Shown piece after piece: positions 40,223 through 52,271 of a stretch of DNA of 64,000 nucleotides. The position numbers and the translations under genes were made by a program. The notes under the pieces are model-generated. The model was given only the letters and a program-made list of their open reading frames with translations, searched no databases and was not told the origin of the DNA. Every line of letters begins with the position of its first letter. The first letter of the stretch is position 1. This stretch comes from Sulfurospirillum sp. Its GTDB lineage: Bacteria; Campylobacterota; Campylobacteria; Campylobacterales; Sulfurospirillaceae. Location: positions 68,101 through 132,100 of the forward strand of contig JASFYR010000014.1 of the NCBI GenBank assembly GCA_045047115.1. Reading direction: 5' to 3'.

Positions 40223-40480
40223 CTCAATATATTTATAAAGTAAAATAATGAGAAGATACTTACTGCTTCGTTAGTTAACTTCCAATGTGGCTTTCAAGGC
40301 TTTTTAACACAGTCAAGTGTGCTGTTTCTAATCACGGGATATGATGAAGTTTACTGTTGGATGGTAATACTATGAGAGTGGTTTAGTGCGTAAGTTCAAT
40401 TTAACATAAATTTGGGTAAAATGTACATCTACTTAATTTTCAGGACTCTTTTAAAAGCCCTTTCGTTTTTAGGAAAAAAT

Positions 40481-42361
40481 TTGTTTTTATTTGATAATTT
40501 GTCTATTTTGTTTATATTTCTAATAATACTTGGAGTCGTGCCAAATCTATTTTACTCTTTTGGTTATCTGTCTCACATAAAAAGAAAAGCATACTATCTT
40601 ATTCATTATTTTGCTTTTATAGCCTCCATGATTGGAGTAGTAACTGCCGGAAATGCACTTGTTTTCCTCCTTTTTTGGGAGCTTATGAGTTTGACATCAT
40701 GGCAACTTATTTTGACGGAAATTGAAGATAAATCAACTATAAAAGCCGCTAGATTTTACTTTTTTATGACACATTTTGGTTTTATATTTTTGTTGGTTTT
40801 CTTTTTGATTGTGACAAGTGGCAATCTGGAAATCGGCTTTTATGAGATGAAAATCATAGCAGAGAATTTTGCGTATCCTACGCTTCTATTTTTCTTTATA
40901 ATTTTTGGACTCTTGAGCAAGGCCGGAGCGGTGCCTATGCATGTCTGGCTTCCTTATGCTCACCCCTCCGCCCCCAGTCCGGTATCGGCTTTGATGAGTG
41001 GAGTGATGCTTAAAGTTGCAATCTATGCACTTTTTAGATTTTTGTTTGATATTTTGAGCGGATGGCAACTAGAATGGGGTATTTTGATACTTATAATTGG
41101 AGCTATTTCATCTTTGGTAGGTGTTTTGTATGCACTTAGTGAACACGACATAAAAGCACTTCTGGCAAATCACTCCATCGAAAATATCGGCATCATTCTT
41201 ATAGGTTTTGGTATGGGAATGATTTTTTTAACTTTAAAACTCCCCGTTCTTAGTGCATTTGCTTTTATAGCCGCACTTTTTCATACATTTAATCATATGA
41301 GTTTCAAATCTTTGTTGTTTATGGGAGCCGGCTCTGTTTTACACCAAACACATACAAAAAATATGGAAAAATATGGTGGACTTATAAAAGCTATGCCTGT
41401 AACTGCTTTTACATTTTTATTGGCGTCCATCAGTATTTCAGCGCTTCCACCGACAAATGGTTTTTTGAGTGAGTGGATGATCTTTCAATCCCTGCTTGGC
41501 TCATCTAGTATAGATAATATTTCGTTAAAACTGGCTATCCCTTTTTCAGTTTTTGCTTTAGCGCTGACTGGTGGTTTGGCGATAGCTTGCTTTGTAAAAG
41601 TTTTTGGGATTACATTTTTAGGACTTCATCGAAGTACAAATGCAAAACACGCACACGAAGTGAATGGCATGATGAAAACAGGTATGATTTTGATGAGTTT
41701 GGTTGTAGTCTCCTTGATGCTTTTCACTCCTTTTTATATGAAACTATTTGACGGAGTGACAAATCAACTCTTACATGTAAGTATATATGATAAAATTTTT
41801 CCAAATATCTGGAGTTTGCACTCTGTATCTAATAACGGCGGTATCGTTTCACCTCTTATATTATTGGCTGGTTTGATAGTGTTGACATTTAGTTTATATG
41901 TAATCTATAAATCTCTAAATATAAAAGAGAAGGTTTTTCATACCTGGGCTTGTGGTTACAACACAAGTGCGAAGACGCAATACTCCGCAACAGGTTTTGC
42001 AGGACCTATCAGGAGATTCTTTACTTGGCTTTATAATCCTGATGAACACTTTGAAAAAGAGGTTATACCAGGACACAGGACAAAATTTATAGATGCTAGC
42101 TTTAGCGTACATGTAAAACCACTTTTTGAAAAATCTCTTTACCAAAGCAGCGTAAAACTAACTAATAAAATCAGCTATTATGTGTATAGATTAGCTCATT
42201 TTGAACAAAGTAGATATGCAGCTATGATTTTTAACATACTTTTATCTGTTTTGTTTAGTTATAGGATTTTTGCTCATGAATTTAGCTGGGCAACGCTGGC
42301 ACTGGAGTCTATCGTCATGATTATATCCATTAAAGTTTTACTCATAGGAGAGAAAAAATGA
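40481..42361 (+). CDS. hyfB: HyfB/NuoL-like antiporter subunit, Ehr set 1 (probable TTG start at 40481 after AGGA; ORF open from 40412)
   Basis: FWELMS, PMHVWLPYAHPSAPSPVSALMSG, HSIENIG, TWACG. Confidence 0.88.
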   Translation: MFLFDNLSILFIFLIILGVVPNLFYSFGYLSHIKRKAYYLIHYFAFIASMIGVVTAGNALVFLLFWELMSLTSWQLILTEIEDKSTIKAARFYFFMTHFGFIFLLVFFLIVTSGNLEIGFYEMKIIAENFAYPTLLFFFIIFGLLSKAGAVPMHVWLPYAHPSAPSPVSALMSGVMLKVAIYALFRFLFDILSGWQLEWGILILIIGAISSLVGVLYALSEHDIKALLANHSIENIGIILIGFGMGMIFLTLKLPVLSAFAFIAALFHTFNHMSFKSLLFMGAGSVLHQTHTKNMEKYGGLIKAMPVTAFTFLLASISISALPPTNGFLSEWMIFQSLLGSSSIDNISLKLAIPFSVFALALTGGLAIACFVKVFGITFLGLHRSTNAKHAHEVNGMMKTGMILMSLVVVSLMLFTPFYMKLFDGVTNQLLHVSIYDKIFPNIWSLHSVSNNGGIVSPLILLAGLIVLTFSLYVIYKSLNIKEKVFHTWACGYNTSAKTQYSATGFAGPIRRFFTWLYNPDEHFEKEVIPGHRTKFIDASFSVHVKPLFEKSLYQSSVKLTNKISYYVYRLAHFEQSRYAAMIFNILLSVLFSYRIFAHEFSWATLALESIVMIISIKVLLIGEKK

Positions 42362-43278
42362 TTATGTATATATTTACTATTTTATTGATGATTTTTTTAG
42401 CTCCTTTGATGCCTAGTTTTATGAAGATAGTGAAAATGTATCTATTGTATAAAAAACCAATCTCACTTTTTCAAGGTTACAGAGATTTTTCAAAACTTTT
42501 AAGCAAAGAGGTAATCATCTCAAAAGAGACAAGTGCTATCACGAGGATTGCGCCTTATTTGGTTCTATCTCCACTATTGCTAACACTGTTTTTTCTTCCA
42601 CCGATTGTGAGCGGTGAATATTATGTGAGTTTTGTAGATGCTTTTACGATTACAGGTTTAATATCGCTTTCTACATTTTTTCTTATGCTTCTTGGACTTG
42701 ATAGTGCGAGTAGCTTTGGGGGAATTGGAAGTAGTCGCGAAGCATTTATCTCTGCTTTGGTGGAGCCTGCTATGATATTGACACTTTTTAGTGTCTCTAT
42801 GATGGCAAAAAATCTTGGCATTGGTCAAGCCGGTATAAATCTTAGTTTGCATTTTCCCTCTGAACATATGGCTAGTTTTATATTTGCAGGTATCAGCTTT
42901 TTTATACTTTTGATTGCAGAAAATGGAAGAATTCCAGTGGATAATCCAGAAACTCACTTAGAGCTAACAATGGTTCATGAAGCTATGATTTTGGATCTTA
43001 GTGGATTTTATTTGTTGCTGATAGAAAGTGCAGGAAGTGTGAAATTTATCATTTTTGCTTCTATGTTTGTATCTTTATTTATACCTTTTGGCTTAAATCT
43101 TCCTATAATCCTGGCTGTTTTAGTGTTTATAGTTAAACTATTTATAGTAGCTCTTTTAGTAGCTCTTTTAGAAGTAAATATTGCAAAATTAAGACTCTTC
43201 AAAGTGCCAAATCTTCTTGGAATTGCGATAGTCTTTGCCTTTTTATCTTTAATTACATTTTATGTGCTAGGAGCGTAA
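42358..43278 (+). CDS. hyfC: HyfC/NuoH-like membrane subunit, set 1
   Basis: GSSRE, AENGRIPVDNPETHLELTMVHE. Confidence 0.9.
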   Translation: MIMYIFTILLMIFLAPLMPSFMKIVKMYLLYKKPISLFQGYRDFSKLLSKEVIISKETSAITRIAPYLVLSPLLLTLFFLPPIVSGEYYVSFVDAFTITGLISLSTFFLMLLGLDSASSFGGIGSSREAFISALVEPAMILTLFSVSMMAKNLGIGQAGINLSLHFPSEHMASFIFAGISFFILLIAENGRIPVDNPETHLELTMVHEAMILDLSGFYLLLIESAGSVKFIIFASMFVSLFIPFGLNLPIILAVLVFIVKLFIVALLVALLEVNIAKLRLFKVPNLLGIAIVFAFLSLITFYVLGA

Positions 43279-43280
43279 TT

Positions 43281-43550
43281 ATGAGACCACCGTACAGTAC
43301 AAACACCCATAATATCAATAGGTTGTTTATAGACGAGGCAAACTCTTGTAGTACTAACTCGTTAATTCAAAAGAGTTTAACGAAGTATATAAGCCACCTA
43401 TTGATACCCAAAGGGAAGTCTGCTTCCCAGCAATCTTTACAAAATAAAGTTTCTCGAATTAACGAGTTAGTCCTTCAAAATTTATCTTGCAAATCTTACC
43501 CAAAATCAGACTTTTATGGGTGTTTGTACTGTGCGGTGGTCTCATTATGA
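43281..43550 (+). CDS. 89-aa ORF spanning the whole MITE (possible translational-coupling bridge)
   Basis: Starts after the native AGGAG RBS; its TGA overlaps the hyfE ATG (ATGA); no recognisable domain. Confidence 0.45.
   Translation: MRPPYSTNTHNINRLFIDEANSCSTNSLIQKSLTKYISHLLIPKGKSASQQSLQNKVSRINELVLQNLSCKSYPKSDFYGCLYCAVVSL
43283..43543. mobile_element. 261-bp MITE-like element with 30-bp TIRs and 5-bp TSD ATTAT
   Basis: gagaccaccgtacagtacaaacacccataa (43283-43312) matches the reverse complement of 43514-43543 at 29/30; ATTAT at 43278-43282 and 43544-43548; no transposase. Confidence 0.92.
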
Positions 43551-44137
43551 TTAGTTTTTTGATAGGCGCATTTTTAGCAACACTTATAACCGCACTTTTT
43601 ACGACAAGATTGTATGGTCTTATACTTTGGTATTCACTAAATTCTCTTTCTCTTGCACTTTTGGCGATTACGATAGGTGTTAATATAAGCGATGATACTA
43701 TGATTATAAGCGGATTTTTGACACTTATCGTAAAATCAGCTGTGATTCCATATGTGCTGAAAAAAGTTAGCATACAGTTTGGCTTGTCTAGGCAAATCAC
43801 GCCAAATGTCCAAGTTTATTATTCTATCATGCTCATTCCTGCACTTTTGGTTTTTACATTTTATCTAGCAGAGCCTATCACAAATATGCTTGTGGCAAAT
43901 GCTAATTATGTGGCTATTAGTATATCAGCCCTGTTTTTATCTCTTTTATTGATGATTGAGCATAAAAATATAGCACCTAAAATCATAGGTTTTTTAACTA
44001 TCGAAAATTCACTGTTTTTGCTTGGAACAACAGCTACAAATGGCATGCCGATGCTTATAGAACTTGGTATATTTTTCGATTTATTGATGGCTATAGTCAT
44101 CATAAATCTACTTTTTAAATCAGAGGAGCTTTCGTGA
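43547..44137 (+). CDS. hyfE: HyfE-like membrane subunit, set 1 (native ATG at 43547; the ORF-track extension lies within the MITE)
   Basis: IIGFLTIENS, GMPMLIELGIFFD. Confidence 0.88.
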   Translation: MISFLIGAFLATLITALFTTRLYGLILWYSLNSLSLALLAITIGVNISDDTMIISGFLTLIVKSAVIPYVLKKVSIQFGLSRQITPNVQVYYSIMLIPALLVFTFYLAEPITNMLVANANYVAISISALFLSLLLMIEHKNIAPKIIGFLTIENSLFLLGTTATNGMPMLIELGIFFDLLMAIVIINLLFKSEELS

Positions 44138-45546
44138 TTTTTCTTTTGATGTTACCAGCATTTATCATGTTGGTGTTTTCATTTTGGGATGTTAGCAAAT
44201 CCAAATTTCTATTTCCGATTGTTTCATTTTTTATCCTTATTCCTTCAATCCGACTCTTTTTCTTGCCAAAGCCTTATGCGATTTGGGGCGATTATCTAAT
44301 CGTAGATAAATTAAGCCAATACATAATGCTTGTTTCGTCCATCGTAGCTATTTGTGTAACTCTAGCTATCAGTACACTTGATTTACATGTAAAGATAAGT
44401 AAGGTTGAGTTTTCAAAATTTTATAGATTTTTTGCGATTTTCTGGATAGGACTTACAGTTTCTATCTTGGCAAACAATATGGGAGTTTACTGGATTGGTT
44501 TAGAAACAGCCACGCTTAGCACAGTTTATATGATAAAAACAAACAAAACAGTAGCAGCAAAAAAAGAGGCTTGGAACTATATGATAGTCGGAGCCATCGC
44601 TATATCTTTGATACTTTTTGGCATCATACTGATTTATGCAAGCGCTAAGCCTATTTTAGGTGAAGAGGCTATGAGCTTTACTGCATTATTGCAAAGTGCA
44701 AAAGAGATAAAATCACCTTTCTTGTTTGAAATAGGATTTGCCATCACGACACTTGGTATGTTTGTAAAGATGGGATTTTTCCCTATGAATTTATGGCTTG
44801 CAAATATAGAGAGAGTCTCTTTTTACCCAATCGCCGCTCTTTTTAGCGGTATTTTAGAGAGCGCAGTTATAGTTGGATTTTTTAGATTTAGCAAGATTGC
44901 GAGCGTTATAAACCAGCAGCATGTATTTATATTTGTGTTTATTTATACCACATTGACTATATTTATCGTCTCTTTTTTGATATATCGTGCTAAAGATTTT
45001 ATGCGACTTTTTTCACTCTCTGGAGTAGAGCATATGGCGATTATCGCACTTTTTTGGGCGAGTGGTGGTGTGTTTCCGGCACTTTTGCATTTTGGAGCCC
45101 ATGCATTTTTAAAACCGGCTCTATTTTTATCGACTGGAATTTTAGAATCAAGAGGAAAATACAGAATAGCCGGGGCACTCAAAGGCTATAGTGGTGTAAA
45201 AGGAAAACTTTTTTACTTTTTAACGGGTCTGTTTTTATTGGCAATTGTTTCGATTCCTCCAAGTCCTATGTTTTTTAGTGAATTGTATGGTTTTGGTGCC
45301 ATGGTTGAAATAGCGAAACAAAACAAGCATCTACTTTTGATGATAGGTGCTATCATTGTATTGCTAGGGCTTTTATCTATCATATTTTATAGATTTGTAG
45401 AGATTTATCAATCCATGAAATACGAAGGAAGTGAAAAGAAAAAAGTAGTTTATGCCAATGAAGTTTTAGCACTTGGCATCTTTGCTTTATCTCTGGTTTT
45501 TTTATTGACACCTTGGAGTTTTGAATTTTTAAGAGGTATATCATGA
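44134..45546 (+). CDS. hyfF: HyfF-like antiporter subunit, set 1
   Basis: WIGLETATLST, EAWNY, KMGFFPMNLWL, SGVEH. Confidence 0.85.
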   Translation: MIFLLMLPAFIMLVFSFWDVSKSKFLFPIVSFFILIPSIRLFFLPKPYAIWGDYLIVDKLSQYIMLVSSIVAICVTLAISTLDLHVKISKVEFSKFYRFFAIFWIGLTVSILANNMGVYWIGLETATLSTVYMIKTNKTVAAKKEAWNYMIVGAIAISLILFGIILIYASAKPILGEEAMSFTALLQSAKEIKSPFLFEIGFAITTLGMFVKMGFFPMNLWLANIERVSFYPIAALFSGILESAVIVGFFRFSKIASVINQQHVFIFVFIYTTLTIFIVSFLIYRAKDFMRLFSLSGVEHMAIIALFWASGGVFPALLHFGAHAFLKPALFLSTGILESRGKYRIAGALKGYSGVKGKLFYFLTGLFLLAIVSIPPSPMFFSELYGFGAMVEIAKQNKHLLLMIGAIIVLLGLLSIIFYRFVEIYQSMKYEGSEKKKVVYANEVLALGIFALSLVFLLTPWSFEFLRGIS

Positions 45547-45857
45547 TCATGAGAGAAGAAAATTTTTTTCATTTTGAAGGCGATGTACTAGTTTTAAATG
45601 TACTCGGAACTCCTTCTGCCAAAGTTGACAAGATAGGAAAGATAAGAGGAGACCAACTAAAAATCGCCATAAAAGCAGCCGCAGAAGATGGCAAAGCCAC
45701 AGATTATATGATAAAATTTTTAGCAAAAGAGTTTGGAGTTAAAAAAGCAGATATCGAGCTTAGCTTTGGATTAACAAGCATAAATAAGCAGTTTAAGATA
45801 AAAGCTCCTAAGAAATTTCCAAAAGTGATGCAAGAGATTATGGAAGAAGAGAAATGA
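45543..45857 (+). CDS. DUF167/YggU-family protein
   Basis: LKIAIKAAAEDGKAT...LAKEFGVKKADIEL.G.TS..K signature. Confidence 0.82.
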   Translation: MIMREENFFHFEGDVLVLNVLGTPSAKVDKIGKIRGDQLKIAIKAAAEDGKATDYMIKFLAKEFGVKKADIELSFGLTSINKQFKIKAPKKFPKVMQEIMEEEK

Positions 45858-47227
45858 AACAGCAACGACTGATAGCAAGATTTGCGGTTGAAAATAGTGA
45901 TTGTTTTGAAGTGATAACTGTTTTTGATGATGAAATTTTAAGAGAAAAACTTGATTTAAAAAATCCTGTTTTAAAATCTATATCTTCAAAATACACAACA
46001 GCAACTTGGTTTGAGCGAAAGATACAGGATGATTTTGGCATAAAGATAGAAGGAAGTTATGACAACAGACCACTTGTTCATCATGAGAGGTTTCCAGACA
46101 TCCACCCTATGCGTAAAAATTTTAAATCTTTACATGTAGATTATGACGAATTTACTCCATATAAGTATGAAACGGTTGGGGGAGAGGGAGTTTTTGAAGT
46201 AGCGGTCGGTCCAATTCACGCTGGAATTATCGAGCCTGGGCACTTTCAATTTTCACAAGAGGGAGAGAGAATTCTCCATCTTGATATTAGGCATTTTTAT
46301 ACTTATCGAGGGATTGAAAAATCTTTAGAGGGTAAAAATATATATGATGCCAAAGAGATAATAGAGAGAATTAGTGGCAATGAAAGTGTAGCTTATCAGA
46401 TAGCTTGGTTTGATATAGTTATGCAAGCAAGCGAAAAACAGTATGATGAAAAACTGAAAAAATACCACTGCTTGCTTTTAGAACTCGAGCGAATTATCCA
46501 TCATCTTACAGATATAGGGTTTATACCAAATGATGCAGGTTTTGGCTCAGCCCTCAGTTTTGCGTCGCAGCTAAGCGAAGACGCAAGAGTATTTTTGAAA
46601 GATTTTTGTGGACATAGATTTGGTTTTGGAAGTATTGGTTTTGAAGTGCGAAAATATGATAAGAAAAAGTTATCGGATTTCTTAAAAATTTTAGAAGAAA
46701 AAGCGAGATGGTTTGAAGATTGGATTGTGGATATCCCCTCACTTTGGGATAGGTTTGATACGACAGGCACATTAAATAAACAAAAAGCCAGAAAGTATGG
46801 AGTTTTAGGAGTCGTGGCCAGGGCCAGTGGTAAAAAAATAGATGTAAGAGACAACAATTTTTATAAAAAACATGGTTTTGTCTTGCAAAATGAAGATGTT
46901 GGAGATGTAGCTTCAAGGTTTAAGCTCAGAATCAAGGAGATATACAATTCAATATCCATGATAAAAAATTTTATAGACGATTTTGTGCAAATTGAAAAAC
47001 CAGAGAGTTTTAAAGATGGGCAATATATGAGTTTTGTTGAGAGTTCTATCGGAGAATTGTTTATGTTTATAGAGTTAAAAGAGGGAAGAATCCAAAGATA
47101 TTATAGCCGTGACCCTAGTTTTATAAATTGGCAAACACTATATTTGATGATGGAAAAAGACATAATCGCAGACTTTCCGCTTATCAATAAAAGTTGTGAT
47201 TTAAGTTATGCAGGAAGTGATTTGTGA
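45854..47227 (+). CDS. hyfG: HyfG/NuoCD-like large subunit lacking NiFe ligands, set 1
   Basis: GPIHAGIIEPGHF, RDPSFINW; L1 = ERISGNES, C-terminus FPLINKSCDLSYAGSDL. Confidence 0.88.
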   Translation: MKQQRLIARFAVENSDCFEVITVFDDEILREKLDLKNPVLKSISSKYTTATWFERKIQDDFGIKIEGSYDNRPLVHHERFPDIHPMRKNFKSLHVDYDEFTPYKYETVGGEGVFEVAVGPIHAGIIEPGHFQFSQEGERILHLDIRHFYTYRGIEKSLEGKNIYDAKEIIERISGNESVAYQIAWFDIVMQASEKQYDEKLKKYHCLLLELERIIHHLTDIGFIPNDAGFGSALSFASQLSEDARVFLKDFCGHRFGFGSIGFEVRKYDKKKLSDFLKILEEKARWFEDWIVDIPSLWDRFDTTGTLNKQKARKYGVLGVVARASGKKIDVRDNNFYKKHGFVLQNEDVGDVASRFKLRIKEIYNSISMIKNFIDDFVQIEKPESFKDGQYMSFVESSIGELFMFIELKEGRIQRYYSRDPSFINWQTLYLMMEKDIIADFPLINKSCDLSYAGSDL

Positions 47228-49218
47228 CAAGTTTCATAATCACACTTTTTATCGTTCCGATATTTTTATCTTTTAAGCCCCGTTTAGCCTTTATAATCGA
47301 AGCAATTTCTAGTTTTTGCTTGGTTGTTGCATCGTTATATCTTTTAATTTCTCAAACAGCGACAAGTGTCAATCTATTTCACTCAATCACTCCTTTTTTG
47401 GATTTTTCTATAAGGCTTGATTCTTTATCATTGCTTTTTGTTATCATAATTTCTACTATAACGCTCGCAGTTTCTCTATACTCTTTAAATTATGTATATG
47501 ATGAGGATTATCATCACAAGAGGCTTTTTGCATTTTTATATACATCATTTATCTCATCTTTACTTTTTGTAATTACTAGTTTTAATGCTATCTCGTTTTT
47601 GATTTTTTGGGAGATAATGTCCACTCTATCTTTCTTTTTGGTGATTTACGACTATGAAAACGAAGAAAACAGACAGGGTGGTTTTTTATATATATTTATG
47701 ACTCACCTTGGGACTGCTTTTATCATGGTGGCTTTTATATTGATGTATTTGCAAACAGGCTCTTTTTCCTTTGAAAGCTGGATACATGTAAGACTTGATG
47801 ATAGTATGAAATTTTGGGTATTTTTATGTATGTTGATTGGTTTTGGAACAAAGGCGGGTATGTTTCCACTTCATGTCTGGCTTCCAAAAGCTCACCCTGT
47901 TGCTCCTTCAAATATCTCTGCTTTGATGAGTGGAATCATGATAAAAACAGCAATTTATATGATGGTTAGATTCTGTTTTTATTTTCTTGAGGATATTCCT
48001 TGGTGGTATGGTTTTATAATTTTGCTTTTAGGTGCACTATCGGCTCTGTTTGGAGTCATGTATGCTCTGGCTCAGCATGATTTAAAAAGCCTATTGGCAT
48101 ATCACAGTATAGAAAATATAGGTATCATTTTGATGGGATTAGGAAGTGCGATGCTTTTTAACTCGAATCATATGCCTATATTGGCATCTTTTGGGCTTTT
48201 AGCGGCACTTTTTCATACTTATAACCATGCGATTTTCAAAAGTTTACTTTTCTTAGGCTCAGGTGCAACATTTCTAAAGACTCATACGAAAGACATGGAA
48301 AAATACGGTGGTCTTATAAAACTTATGCCATATACTGCACTGTTTTTTATCATAGGTTCCATCTCGATTTCTGCGCTACCGCCTTTTAATGGATTTGTCA
48401 GTGAATGGCTTACATATCAATCATTGCTTTTAAATAACAAAATAGATATCAATATCATACATATTTTTGTACCTCTTTTTGCATCCATGTTAGCTCTCAC
48501 TGGTGCATTTGCGGCGGCTTGTTTTGTCAAAGTTATAGGAATCTCATTTTTAGGATCACCGCGAAGTGATGGTGCAAAAAAAGCAAATGAAGTCGGCAGA
48601 TATATGGTGTGGGGCATGGGAATGTTGGCGGTTCTTTGTGCGGTATTTGGGCTTTTCCCAAATATAGTAGTTGGAATTGTAGCTCCTGTTACTTCACTTT
48701 TGTTGGGGATTGATGTCTCTTTGAGTGCTAGTTCACATGCATTTATGGTGTCAACTCCTGATTTTTCTTTTGGGCATTTAAGCACTTTTGGACTCTCAAT
48801 CGGTTTTATGTCGGCAATTTTCATACTCTTTGTTTTAATCAGGAAATTTGGAAATACCAAAACTAGAATATGCCCGACTTGGGGATGTGGTCAGTTGAAT
48901 AATGACGAAACCAACCAATACACAGCGAGTGGTTTTTCGCAACCAATCAGAAGAATATTTGGATTTTTCTATCATCCAAAAGAGAAAGTTTATCCAATTT
49001 CAAGGAAAAAGAAGTACTTTTTTCCAACTCTTGAATATAGCGCACATTCTCATGACGGTATAGAGACAATTTACAATCTTATACTTAAAATTTTTGTAAA
49101 AAGCAGTTCGTATTTGATAGGTAAAATTGAAAATGGATCAATCCACATATATCTTTTGTATATATTTATCACCTCGGTTGCTTTTTTGGTATATGCAGTT
49201 AAAGGAGGTGTAAAATAA
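47224..49218 (+). CDS. hyfB: HyfB-like antiporter subunit, set 2
   Basis: FWEIMS, PLHVWLPKAHPVAPSNISALMSG, AYHSIENIG, TWGCG. Confidence 0.9.
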   Translation: MTSFIITLFIVPIFLSFKPRLAFIIEAISSFCLVVASLYLLISQTATSVNLFHSITPFLDFSIRLDSLSLLFVIIISTITLAVSLYSLNYVYDEDYHHKRLFAFLYTSFISSLLFVITSFNAISFLIFWEIMSTLSFFLVIYDYENEENRQGGFLYIFMTHLGTAFIMVAFILMYLQTGSFSFESWIHVRLDDSMKFWVFLCMLIGFGTKAGMFPLHVWLPKAHPVAPSNISALMSGIMIKTAIYMMVRFCFYFLEDIPWWYGFIILLLGALSALFGVMYALAQHDLKSLLAYHSIENIGIILMGLGSAMLFNSNHMPILASFGLLAALFHTYNHAIFKSLLFLGSGATFLKTHTKDMEKYGGLIKLMPYTALFFIIGSISISALPPFNGFVSEWLTYQSLLLNNKIDINIIHIFVPLFASMLALTGAFAAACFVKVIGISFLGSPRSDGAKKANEVGRYMVWGMGMLAVLCAVFGLFPNIVVGIVAPVTSLLLGIDVSLSASSHAFMVSTPDFSFGHLSTFGLSIGFMSAIFILFVLIRKFGNTKTRICPTWGCGQLNNDETNQYTASGFSQPIRRIFGFFYHPKEKVYPISRKKKYFFPTLEYSAHSHDGIETIYNLILKIFVKSSSYLIGKIENGSIHIYLLYIFITSVAFLVYAVKGGVK

Positions 49219-50153
49219 TGAAAATTATACTTATGGCTCTGATACAATTTTTTATCATTTTGATTATTTCTCCATTTATCGCAGGACTCATGCAAAAGAC
49301 AAAATCTCTCATAAGAGGTTCAGATGGTCCTAGCGTTTTTCAACCATATTTTAATCTTGTAAAATTATTTAACAAAGAAGTTGTTCTCTCGAATCAATCT
49401 TCATACATCTCTATAATCGCACCATATATCGTAGCGATTGTACCTATAACAGTAGCAGGATTTTTGCCTGTATTTGATGACAATACCTTGATGTCATTTA
49501 GCGGTGATATCATTGCCATGGTTTATATCTTAGCACTTGGCACTTTTTTCTTGGCACTCTTTGGATTTGACCAAGGTTCAAGCTTTGGAGGACTTGGAAG
49601 CAGTCGTGAGATGACTGTAGCATCTTTGGCAGAACCTGCTTTTATCATGGTGATTTTTACTTTTGCACTTCAGAGCAATTCGACAAATATCAGTCATATC
49701 TTTGATTCTATGCGAGGCGATATATTTTTCAACTATCCAGTCTCTTCTACTTTGGCTTTGATGGCTTTATACTTTGTCACTTTGGCAGAATCAGGAAGGA
49801 TTCCTATCGATAATCCTGAAACTCATCTTGAGTTGACTATGATTCATGAAGCCATGATTTTAGAAGCAAGCGGTAGAAATTTGGCGCTTTTGGAGATAGG
49901 CTCTTTTGTAAAAACGACGATTTTTCTCACTCTGTTTTCAAATATCTTTATGCCTCTTGGATTTTATGATACAAATACCATCTGGACTATCGGTTTTAGT
50001 ATTTTTGTCTATTTTTTGAAGATGAGTACATTGGCTATTATCATAGCAATAGGGGAGCTAACACTTGCAAAGTTGAGATATTTTAGGATTTCAGATGCCA
50101 TGATGTTCGGTTTTGTTTTGGCACTGATTTCGATGGTTACATATAGGTTATAA
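49218..50153 (+). CDS. hyfC: HyfC-like subunit, set 2
   Basis: GSSREM, ESGRIPIDNPETHLELTMIHE. Confidence 0.9.
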   Translation: MKIILMALIQFFIILIISPFIAGLMQKTKSLIRGSDGPSVFQPYFNLVKLFNKEVVLSNQSSYISIIAPYIVAIVPITVAGFLPVFDDNTLMSFSGDIIAMVYILALGTFFLALFGFDQGSSFGGLGSSREMTVASLAEPAFIMVIFTFALQSNSTNISHIFDSMRGDIFFNYPVSSTLALMALYFVTLAESGRIPIDNPETHLELTMIHEAMILEASGRNLALLEIGSFVKTTIFLTLFSNIFMPLGFYDTNTIWTIGFSIFVYFLKMSTLAIIIAIGELTLAKLRYFRISDAMMFGFVLALISMVTYRL

Positions 50154-50165
50154 GGTGGTATTTTA

Positions 50166-50813
50166 GTGTTTTCAGATTTTATAGAACTTATCGGTGCTTT
50201 TGTTTTGGTTTTGGCAATTTTACAAATCACGAGTGATAGATTATATTTTTCGATTAAAATATATGCGATTCAGTCATTTTTTGTAGCTGTTTCAATCCTG
50301 AGTATAGGGATTTACAGCTCCTCTTTTGATTTGTACGTCAGCTCCTTTTTGACGCTTGTTATCAAAACATTTGTTATACCTTATGCACTTTTTAAGACGA
50401 TAGATGAGATGAAAATCAAAAGAGAGATAAAGGCATTTGTAAATATCACAAACTCTTTATTGATCATTTCGGCGATTATAATATTTACATTTTTACTTAC
50501 AAGATACATAAATATAGGTGGAAGCGTGATAGCAAAAGAGATATTTCCTATCTCATTATCTATCATCTTTATCGGTGCTTTTATCATGGTTTCAAGGCAA
50601 AAACCAATCACACAACTCATAGGGTTTTTGACTTTGGAAAACGGAATTATGCTAGTTGCAACTTCCGTGACTTACGGTATGCCGTTGATTGTGGAAATCG
50701 GTATATTTTTTGATGTTATCGTCGGCGCTACCATGGCTTCACTTATCATTCATCATATCAACCATGATATAGATGATATAGATGAAACCAGTGTTAGCGA
50801 TTTTAAGGAGTAA
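50166..50813 (+). CDS. hyfE: HyfE-like subunit, set 2
   Basis: QLIGFLTLENG, YGMPLIVEIGIFFD. Confidence 0.9.
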   Translation: MFSDFIELIGAFVLVLAILQITSDRLYFSIKIYAIQSFFVAVSILSIGIYSSSFDLYVSSFLTLVIKTFVIPYALFKTIDEMKIKREIKAFVNITNSLLIISAIIIFTFLLTRYINIGGSVIAKEIFPISLSIIFIGAFIMVSRQKPITQLIGFLTLENGIMLVATSVTYGMPLIVEIGIFFDVIVGATMASLIIHHINHDIDDIDETSVSDFKE

Positions 50814-50816
50814 GGT

Positions 50817-52271
50817 GTGGGATATATACTGGCAATTCAATTAATCTGGACAGCAATCTTAAAGTTTTTGCCATTAAGGTTTGTGTATATCGCACAAGTT
50901 TTTGTAAGTGGCATTATTTTTATAGGTAGTTTTAGCTATATTCCAAAAGTGATAAATCAAAAAATTATACTTGAAATCAAAGATTATTTTTTTCTTGATT
51001 CTTTAAATATTTTGATTTTAACCTCCTTACTGTTTCTTGTCTTTTGTATAGCTATTTACTCTATCGGGTATATGAAAACAGAACAAGAGCATGGTTTAAG
51101 TGTCGATAAAGTTAAAACCTTTTACATGTGGAAAAATTTATTTGTATTTTGCATGAGTGTAGTATTGCTTTCAAATAACTTTGGAATTGCTTGGATAGCG
51201 ATAGAAGGAACTACGCTTTCTACCACTTTTTTGATAGGATTTTATAATACCAAAGATGCAGTTAAAGCTTCGTGGCACTATATTATCATCTGTTCATTTG
51301 GTATAGCTTTGGGACTTTTTGGAGTAGTTACACTCTATTTTGCTACCTATCACGCTTTAGGCGAGGGAATGAATTCATTAAATTGGGTAAATATTATACA
51401 AATTTCTAAAAATCTAGACCCTGCACTTTTAAAGATATCTTTTGCTTTTTTTCTAGTAGGTTTTGGTACAAAAGCAGGACTTGCCCCTATGCACTCTTGG
51501 CTTCCTGATGCACATTCCCAAGCGCCGACTCCTATAAGCGCACTTATGAGTGGTGTTTTGCTCAGTTCTGCATTGTATGTTATTTTGAGACTCAAAGCTA
51601 TCGTTGATAGTGCTGGTTTAGTATATTTTACATCCAATCTTTTGCTTATTGTGGGTATGCTTTCTATCTTTGTAGCGGCCATTGCAATCATTGGACAAAA
51701 AGATTATAAAAGACTTTTGGCATTTTCATCGATGGAGCATATGGGACTTATGGCATTTGCCTTTGGCATAGGAAACAGGCTTGGGATTTTTGCAGGATTA
51801 TTGCACCTTATCAATCATGTTTTTGCAAAAGGATTGATGTTTTCTAGCGTAGGTTCGATTTTAGTGAATTTTCACACAAGGGAGATTTTTAAAATCAAAG
51901 GTTTATATAAAAGTATGCCTTTAACTGCTGTATTTATAACTTTAGGAGTTTTAGGAATTACAGGAATTCCGCCGTTTAATATCTTTGTGAGTGAATTTTT
52001 GATTTTAACTTCTGCATTAGATGCTCACATGTACTGGCAAGTTGCTGTAGTTTTACTGTTTTTAGTGATGATATTTGGTGGTTTTATCTATCTTTTTAGC
52101 TCCATGTTGATGGGGAAAAGCGATGAAAAGAAAAAAGAGGATTATAATATGTTGCTTCCGATGGCGATGCTTTTAGCTATGATGATTTATCTTGGTATCA
52201 CGATGCCTGAAAATATGAAAATCTTGCTAAATAATGCAGTAAATATTTTAAGTAACAAAGGAGTTCTTTGA
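50817..52271 (+). CDS. hyfF: HyfF-like subunit, set 2
   Basis: WIAIEGTTLST, GTKAGLAPMHSWLPDAHSQAP, SSMEH. Confidence 0.9.
   Translation: MGYILAIQLIWTAILKFLPLRFVYIAQVFVSGIIFIGSFSYIPKVINQKIILEIKDYFFLDSLNILILTSLLFLVFCIAIYSIGYMKTEQEHGLSVDKVKTFYMWKNLFVFCMSVVLLSNNFGIAWIAIEGTTLSTTFLIGFYNTKDAVKASWHYIIICSFGIALGLFGVVTLYFATYHALGEGMNSLNWVNIIQISKNLDPALLKISFAFFLVGFGTKAGLAPMHSWLPDAHSQAPTPISALMSGVLLSSALYVILRLKAIVDSAGLVYFTSNLLLIVGMLSIFVAAIAIIGQKDYKRLLAFSSMEHMGLMAFAFGIGNRLGIFAGLLHLINHVFAKGLMFSSVGSILVNFHTREIFKIKGLYKSMPLTAVFITLGVLGITGIPPFNIFVSEFLILTSALDAHMYWQVAVVLLFLVMIFGGFIYLFSSMLMGKSDEKKKEDYNMLLPMAMLLAMMIYLGITMPENMKILLNNAVNILSNKGVL

Follow-up and report, generated by a model that had tools for sequence, protein, structure and literature searches.

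Mycobacterial interspersed repetitive units (MIRUs) are repeats of 40-100 bp that often lie in tandem, and we know of no transposase assigned to them. The accessible text of PMC12548453 describes them as short repeats that insert at start codons and couple an ORF of their own, at -4 nt, to the host gene, and holds that insertion is thought to be harmless through such coupling. Rickettsia RPE, ERIC and Anabaena MITEs fuse in frame with host proteins (PMC10969869 and PMC2759123, accessible parts), and Neisseria REP2 and Borrelia IR repeats carry a promoter, an RBS and an ATG, and are without TIRs (PMC3184786, accessible part). Translational coupling at ATGA and TGATG overlaps is itself established, according to the accessible part of PMC6728339.

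The element described here lies between a hyfC-like and a hyfE-like gene in a 64,000-nucleotide stretch of Sulfurospirillum sp. DNA (the window). Its likeness to MIRUs, as these are portrayed in the text available, is one of lifestyle: it, too, is often found at start codons and has an ORF of its own placed for coupling to the host gene. It differs from them in its Campylobacterales host, in being a 261-bp MITE with TIRs, a target duplication and a candidate IS5 transposase, in its -1 and -4 overlaps, and in having closed-frame sisters as controls. Like the RPE, ERIC and Anabaena repeats, as far as the accessible texts describe these, it is a small structured mobile repeat with an open frame touching genes. 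Unlike RPE and ERIC, however, the element together with its duplication measures 266 bp and is out of the host frame, and the host protein is unchanged; the host-gene frame was closed 4-28 codons upstream in 30/30 copies, with no in-frame fusion. With REP2 and the IR repeats, in the same partial account, it shares a position directly upstream of genes and the delivery of translation signals, but a promoter and terminator scan inside the element gave no match. Finally, termination-reinitiation and RNA-unfolding coupling (accessible parts of PMC6728339 and PMC12548453) likewise involve ATGA and TGATG overlaps, ribosome delivery by a short ORF and upstream translation that opens structure; this case would differ from them in having a mobile coupling unit, which puts both junctions in place by itself. 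A literature search, confined to main texts and with little reach into subscription journals, did not turn up this MITE family, and the accessible text of a preprint on prokaryotic MITEs (10.1101/2024.01.18.576219) holds nothing on such a relay. A start-codon lifestyle is already in print for MIRUs as a suggestion, to which the present family adds.

The features at the junction, in positions of the window, are as follows.

42358-43278, + strand: hyfC, the upstream gene, encoding a HyfC/NuoH-type membrane subunit of 306 aa (PF00146); the native RBS lies inside its last codons
43269-43273, + strand: native RBS AGGAG, read from the sequence
43278-43282: left target duplication ATTAT, which shares bases with the upstream stop and whose AT opens the new ATG
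43281-43550, + strand: bridging ORF of 89 aa by translation, without a Pfam match, whose closing TGA overlaps the next ATG (ATGA)
43283-43543, + strand: MITE of 261 bp without a transposase, with a three-helix fold closed by the TIRs (from sequence, fold and copies)
43283-43312, + strand: left TIR, 30 bp, its outer 17 bp common to the IS5-family partner
43313-43406: long internal hairpin, kept with compensatory changes; the body is common to MITEs with other ends
43514-43543, - strand: right TIR, 30 bp
43535-43541: RBS-like GGTGGTC in the right TIR, 5 nt before the hyfE ATG
43544-43548: right target duplication ATTAT, which gives back the AT of the hyfE start codon
43547-44137, + strand: hyfE, the downstream gene, encoding an intact HyfE-like membrane subunit of 196 aa, counted from the ATG; alignments with its orthologues begin at residue 1

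The insert at the hyfC/hyfE junction is a MITE: inverted ends, a duplication, dispersed copies and empty sites are all present. A preliminary description of this DNA had reported a 261-bp element with 30-bp TIRs and an ATTAT duplication, and these coordinates all check. The element has 37% GC. Including the duplications, its inverted arms (43278-43312 and 43514-43548) extend over 35 nt and agree at 94%, the 30-bp TIR having one mismatch. An Rfam covariance-model search with the element returned 0 matches at E <= 1. HyfC and HyfE are names given by resemblance; the HyfE match (PRK11492) was under its cut-off.

Orthologous junctions were sought in 13 other genomes. The element was missing from the hyfC/hyfE junction in 10/10 genus relatives having the pair, where the gap from stop to ATG was 0-5 nt, and one contig of sequencing run X1 also skips the element. 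The empty site proposed earlier was thus right in being an element-free junction, as the 10 relatives show, but its gap of 2 nt compares with 5 nt in the three closest relatives. Recent movement is suggested by contigs of runs X2 and X3, in which the copies carry 3 and 5 differences and their flanks are unlike. In run X3, a contig from an organism about 87% alike shows what seems to be a remnant of the element, 47 bp long, at this hyfC/hyfE junction (window 43191-43677), left either by an older shared insertion or by a second one at the same site. The length of this remnant is not a multiple of 3 and its frame would close 8 nt inside hyfE, which counts against the relay proposed below.

The ATGA geometry had been noted elsewhere in the surrounding operon (40412-50153), and its other junctions do overlap, by 4 nt in 5/6 and by 1 nt in 1/6. 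A complex-I/hydrogenase-type large subunit encoded at 45854-47227 seems to lack the CxxC nickel ligands, so the operon may encode an Ehr-type complex, not hydrogenase 4. A DUF167/YggU gene (45543-45857) is set among the membrane-subunit genes of the operon and overlaps each of its two neighbours by 4 nt, and a second paralogous hyfB/C/E/F-like run follows directly (47224-52271), its HyfE paralogue being 36% identical.

The bridging ORF opens 2 nt past the hyfC-like stop (TAA, 43276-43278) and 7 nt past AGGAG, the distance that, judging by the inferred empty site, separated this RBS from the hyfE ATG before insertion. The preliminary description had pointed to this new ATG at the old RBS spacing; the spacing holds, but the site is no coincidence, because the family target is ATNAT and the element begins with G. 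Conceptual translation bore out the 89-aa stop-free frame that ends on the hyfE ATG at 43547 as ATGA, and the frame from the opposite end, expected to close after about 28 codons, stops after 28 codons. The chance of such an open frame had been put below 1%; in 20,000 dinucleotide shuffles, 29 (0.145%) kept the bridging frame open, and 0.68% kept any of the six frames open. An in-frame TTG at 43487 was rejected as the hyfE start: its RBS pairing is weak (-3.4), only 1/30 copies has TTG at that place, and orthologues begin at the ATG.

To place this copy within its family, we collected others. Matches occurred in 11/41 relatives and in 39/401 genomes of the order, including elements that have the body alone in common. 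Requiring both ends, separating copies by their 15-nt flanks and setting partial copies aside, we kept 40 distinct full copies of a family of at least 40, part of the loci coming from among the matches listed in an end-motif scan. Thirty of the 40 were 261 bp long, with a mutual identity of 75-99%, and the other 10 were 262-267 bp. Named records with the element, among the matches listed, were Campylobacterota/Desulfurellales almost throughout; one was titled Chlorobiota and none was mycobacterial. Plasmid and E. coli collections, searched in the distant mode, gave no match, and 15 pattern matches in viral contigs included no full copy.

The outer flanks of the copies are ATNAT and lean towards a following G; with the terminal G of the element, such a flank forms an ATG in most insertions. 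Duplications of 5 bp were also present at non-AT targets. The paired duplications were identical in 20/39 copies, and mismatches fell mostly at positions 3 and 1, in young-looking copies too, some of them lengthening the inverted repeat. Chimeric assembly was rejected as a general cause of these mismatches, since the flanking genes are adjacent in this genome for 7/9 other two-gene-flanked copies, and for 5/7 of those with mismatched duplications. A model with a 2-bp duplication fits a few copies and fails for those on non-AT targets.

Among the matches listed were 1.5-kb elements, candidate partners of the MITE, whose ends agree with its own over the outer 17 bp and which have a frame of 418-441 aa. 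The one partner transposase tested (418 aa) scored 190 bits against NF033581, for which the cut-off is 140, and matched PF01609 and PF05598. The partner is an IS5-family element with a DDE transposase over the curated cut-off, and its GAGACC end may resemble those of the IS1106 group. The outer 17 bp and a 5-bp ATNAT-like target are common to the MITE and the 1.5-kb element, but the MITE body is not derived from the IS: 17-24 terminal bases alone aligned in 5/5 full IS copies tested, and an origin by internal deletion was rejected. A search of this assembly for an intact partner transposase found none; what it contains is a 674-bp internally deleted partner remnant with both ends and a broken transposase (G000:C2:99-772; G000 is this genome). 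Judged by the ends and target in common, the MITE is probably mobilised by the IS5-family partner transposase.

The preliminary description had left two options, a family pre-adapted to start codons or a rare surviving insertion. The second was rejected, since the open frame is a trait of the family. Within the 261-bp class, on which this count is conditioned and which does not contain the closed clade below, the bridging frame was stop-free in 27/30 copies; the remaining 3 had one TAG each, and each of the other five frames had 3-10 stops. Counting present-day copies only on a tree of the 30 (length 1.82), with placement read from the tips, we observed 3 stop gains as opposed to 18.7-25.4 expected (P <= 1e-5), and 3 as opposed to 14-18 when 14 copies from one metagenome assembly were left out. 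A weaker test agrees with this deficit: variable near-stop codon columns reached a stop in 3/54 cases in the bridging frame versus 43/214 in the other five (p = 0.009). The open bridge frame is a family trait, beyond chance. In 10/40 full copies, those of 262-267 bp, the frame was closed, always by codon 15; nine of the ten form one clade nested among open copies, which has spread all the same, in intergenic sites. The outcome named beforehand as contrary, stops in the other copies and random sites, was looked for in the copies and was not what we saw.

Copies might share an open frame simply by inheritance from a founder, with ATNAT targets often holding an ATG by chance. The target preference does make the ATG, the copies are related, and paired changes in the hairpins reduce the number of independent events. 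On the other hand, copies differ by up to 25%, and both the stop deficit and the strand asymmetry argue against this explanation, which is already largely refuted and which we regard as extremely unlikely.

The frame could instead be kept for a peptide of 88-89 aa with its own function, as cargo, toxin or regulator, to which start sites merely lend expression signals. Length and frame are conserved, start sites would bring an RBS, and a protein database search gave 2 matches among 3 candidates, 69-71% identical and of equal length. We take both proteins as gene calls of other MITE copies, and a Pfam search with the bridging ORF found no match. The dN/dS of the bridging frame was 0.80, within the 0.64-0.83 of five closed frames, and third positions were no more variable; median identity among copies was 70% for amino acids at 85% for nucleotides, and copies that have shrunk to 27 and 43 codons are still in frame. 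The peptide is thus not visibly under protein-level selection and appears to be a by-product. Structural constraint could hide weak selection on the protein, but a function of its own seems very unlikely.

Where the copies sit was scored by a simple rule, under which an end was at a start if an ATG in its outer duplication opened at least 80 codons; the copies are kin, and the counts should be read with this in mind. Among the 27 open copies, the sense end was at a start codon in 16, was not in 8 and was undecided in 3, as opposed to 0, 26 and 1, respectively, for the reversed end. This is the sense in which pre-adaptation to start codons found support (27/30 copies open, 16/27 of these at starts). 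None of the 13 closed copies, among them the three 261-bp copies with a gained stop, was at a start in either orientation (open versus closed, Fisher 7e-5). Dropping the 14-copy metagenome assembly left 6/12 open versus 0/13 closed copies at starts (p = 0.005). With partial copies included, starts were found at 23/70 right ends, 0/54 left ends, 0/42 ends of the partner IS and 0/134 other matches; for ends containing an ATG, the counts were 23/32, 0/4 and 0/10 for right, left and partner IS, respectively. The background in this genome was 319/5776 for ATNAT sites outside ORF cores and 319/1497 for the ATG-containing ones, a rough comparison because many such sites are not safe.

An upstream stop was overlapped or adjoined by 12/27 open copies, 9 of which combine it with a start codon, and some open copies at starts have no close upstream gene. 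The proteins downstream of the 16 start-site copies matched families in 12 cases, in several of which the match already began with the first model residues (hisS, minC, trkH and a 3'-5' exonuclease), and in one genome (G012) a copy occupies the start of the sole hisS over the cut-off. Right ends near a start numbered 28, of which 25 lay at -2 (14) or +1 (11). This exact overlap is largely forced by CTC, ATNAT and G and is therefore not independent evidence for a relay.

Judging from these sequences, we consider it likely that a translational relay makes start-codon insertions tolerable. The IS5-family transposase would insert the MITE at ATNAT in either orientation. Where ATNAT is followed by the G of a start codon, the target AT and the terminal G form a new ATG under the host RBS or an upstream stop, and the terminal GA of the element can also rebuild an upstream TGA. 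The 261-bp body is stop-free in the frame of this ATG, which the terminal CTC and the duplicated ATNAT close in TAATG, TGATG or ATGA on the host start. Ribosomes arriving by way of the native RBS or an upstream stop would load before the right TIR is transcribed, cross the element ahead of or during formation of the TIR helix, keep this helix off the start codon of the host gene and reinitiate at it, perhaps with some help from the RBS-like motif of the TIR. At start codons the sense open form alone would survive; selection would then shape the pattern, for which active targeting of starts would not be needed. Protection from Rho may add to the relay. The 8/27 open copies away from starts count against it, as does the spread of the closed clade.

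The element folds strongly (z -12), and 35/87 consensus pairs were changed on both sides. Such paired changes may reflect RNA structure, and DNA-level correction between repeats could also produce them. The predicted fold gave unpaired probabilities of 0.08 for the native RBS, 0.03 for the new ATG and 0.00 for the TIR motif; burial of all three fits unfolding and reinitiation models as given in the accessible part of PMC12548453.

Translation through so stable a structure might be needed to protect the mRNA, at the hairpins, against nuclease cleavage or termination by Rho and not to pass on ribosomes. Shielding would account equally well for stop avoidance and orientation, and rho was present over the cut-off. 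Against it stand the open copies at starts that have no close upstream gene, and the shrunken copies, which stay in register with a start, though this register is partly automatic. In this genome, a 75-bp shrunken copy (C31:3769-3843) retains an open frame whose end overlaps the start of a 459-aa gene as ATGA. A second copy, decayed to 126 bp and located on contig C9, retains 43 codons that stop 1 nt before a 420-aa gene, its left end now providing the upstream TGA; both sites are empty in relatives. Shielding and relay are compatible, not exclusive, and shielding in place of a relay appears unlikely. Two copies with diverged TIRs also retain 261 bp and an open frame, one of them at a start. 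Palindromic remnants of 22-28 bp, made up of both end tips and the duplications, were observed in intergenic positions (C9, C22 and C24 of this genome; loci L047, L048 and L065).

Another possibility is that the GGTGGTC of the right TIR acts as an RBS that starts the host gene de novo, the open frame mattering little. Its duplex with the anti-SD was predicted at -11.4 kcal/mol versus -7.8 for the native AGGAG, values computed with an assumed anti-SD sequence; the 16S tail was not found in this assembly. Sister MITEs are in favour as well. Of 20 elements that combine this body with different ends, none had a stop-free frame, and 3/20 adjoin starts, with GGAG in the TIR. These closed-frame sisters adjoining start codons are located as follows, L091 being named by its locus.

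G000:C10:130008-130272: sister MITE with GGAG ends and a closed frame, adjoining a start codon
G000:C11:6533-6796: the same
L091: the same

The GGAG end may supply their RBS, and the bridge is therefore not the sole route to a start codon. However, GGTGGTC occurs at both ends of the element and on the partner IS, and yet no left end (0/54), partner IS end (0/42) or closed copy (0/13) was at a start. The motif is also buried in the TIR helix of the predicted fold, and initiation there leaves stop avoidance unexplained. We hold de novo initiation to be quite improbable as the main route, while the motif may well assist reinitiation in the relay. The same structured body, of about 200 bp, was also seen with at least five different terminal repeats (L017, L018, L079, L080, L244, L249 and others), as if one structured core had been passed between transposase families.

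Going further, the relay might be self-installing and the product of selection acting on the mobile element itself, a reading that we offer tentatively and that on balance stays doubtful. Length, terminal bases and target would then be co-adapted such that both neighbouring proteins and their coupled junctions survive; the design would outlast changes of the TIR and perhaps of the transposase, and, owing to the conserved helix, the downstream gene would depend strictly on the element being translated. If this were true, the element would be to translation what self-splicing introns and inteins are at their own levels, its deletion would be difficult unless in frame, and its same-body sisters would have solved the same problem by a TIR-borne RBS.

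Beyond what has been suggested for MIRUs, this MITE family has a candidate transposase, natural controls and a stop deficit that was measured and is not accompanied by protein selection. The closed clade, the reversed orientation, the partner IS and the RBS-bearing sisters make the relay model directly testable. The family explains a class of spurious hypothetical proteins of 88-89 aa and would provide a non-polar insertion cassette of natural origin. It is also an example of how cut-and-paste parasites can occupy start codons and tightly coupled operons in gene-dense genomes, even before an essential gene.
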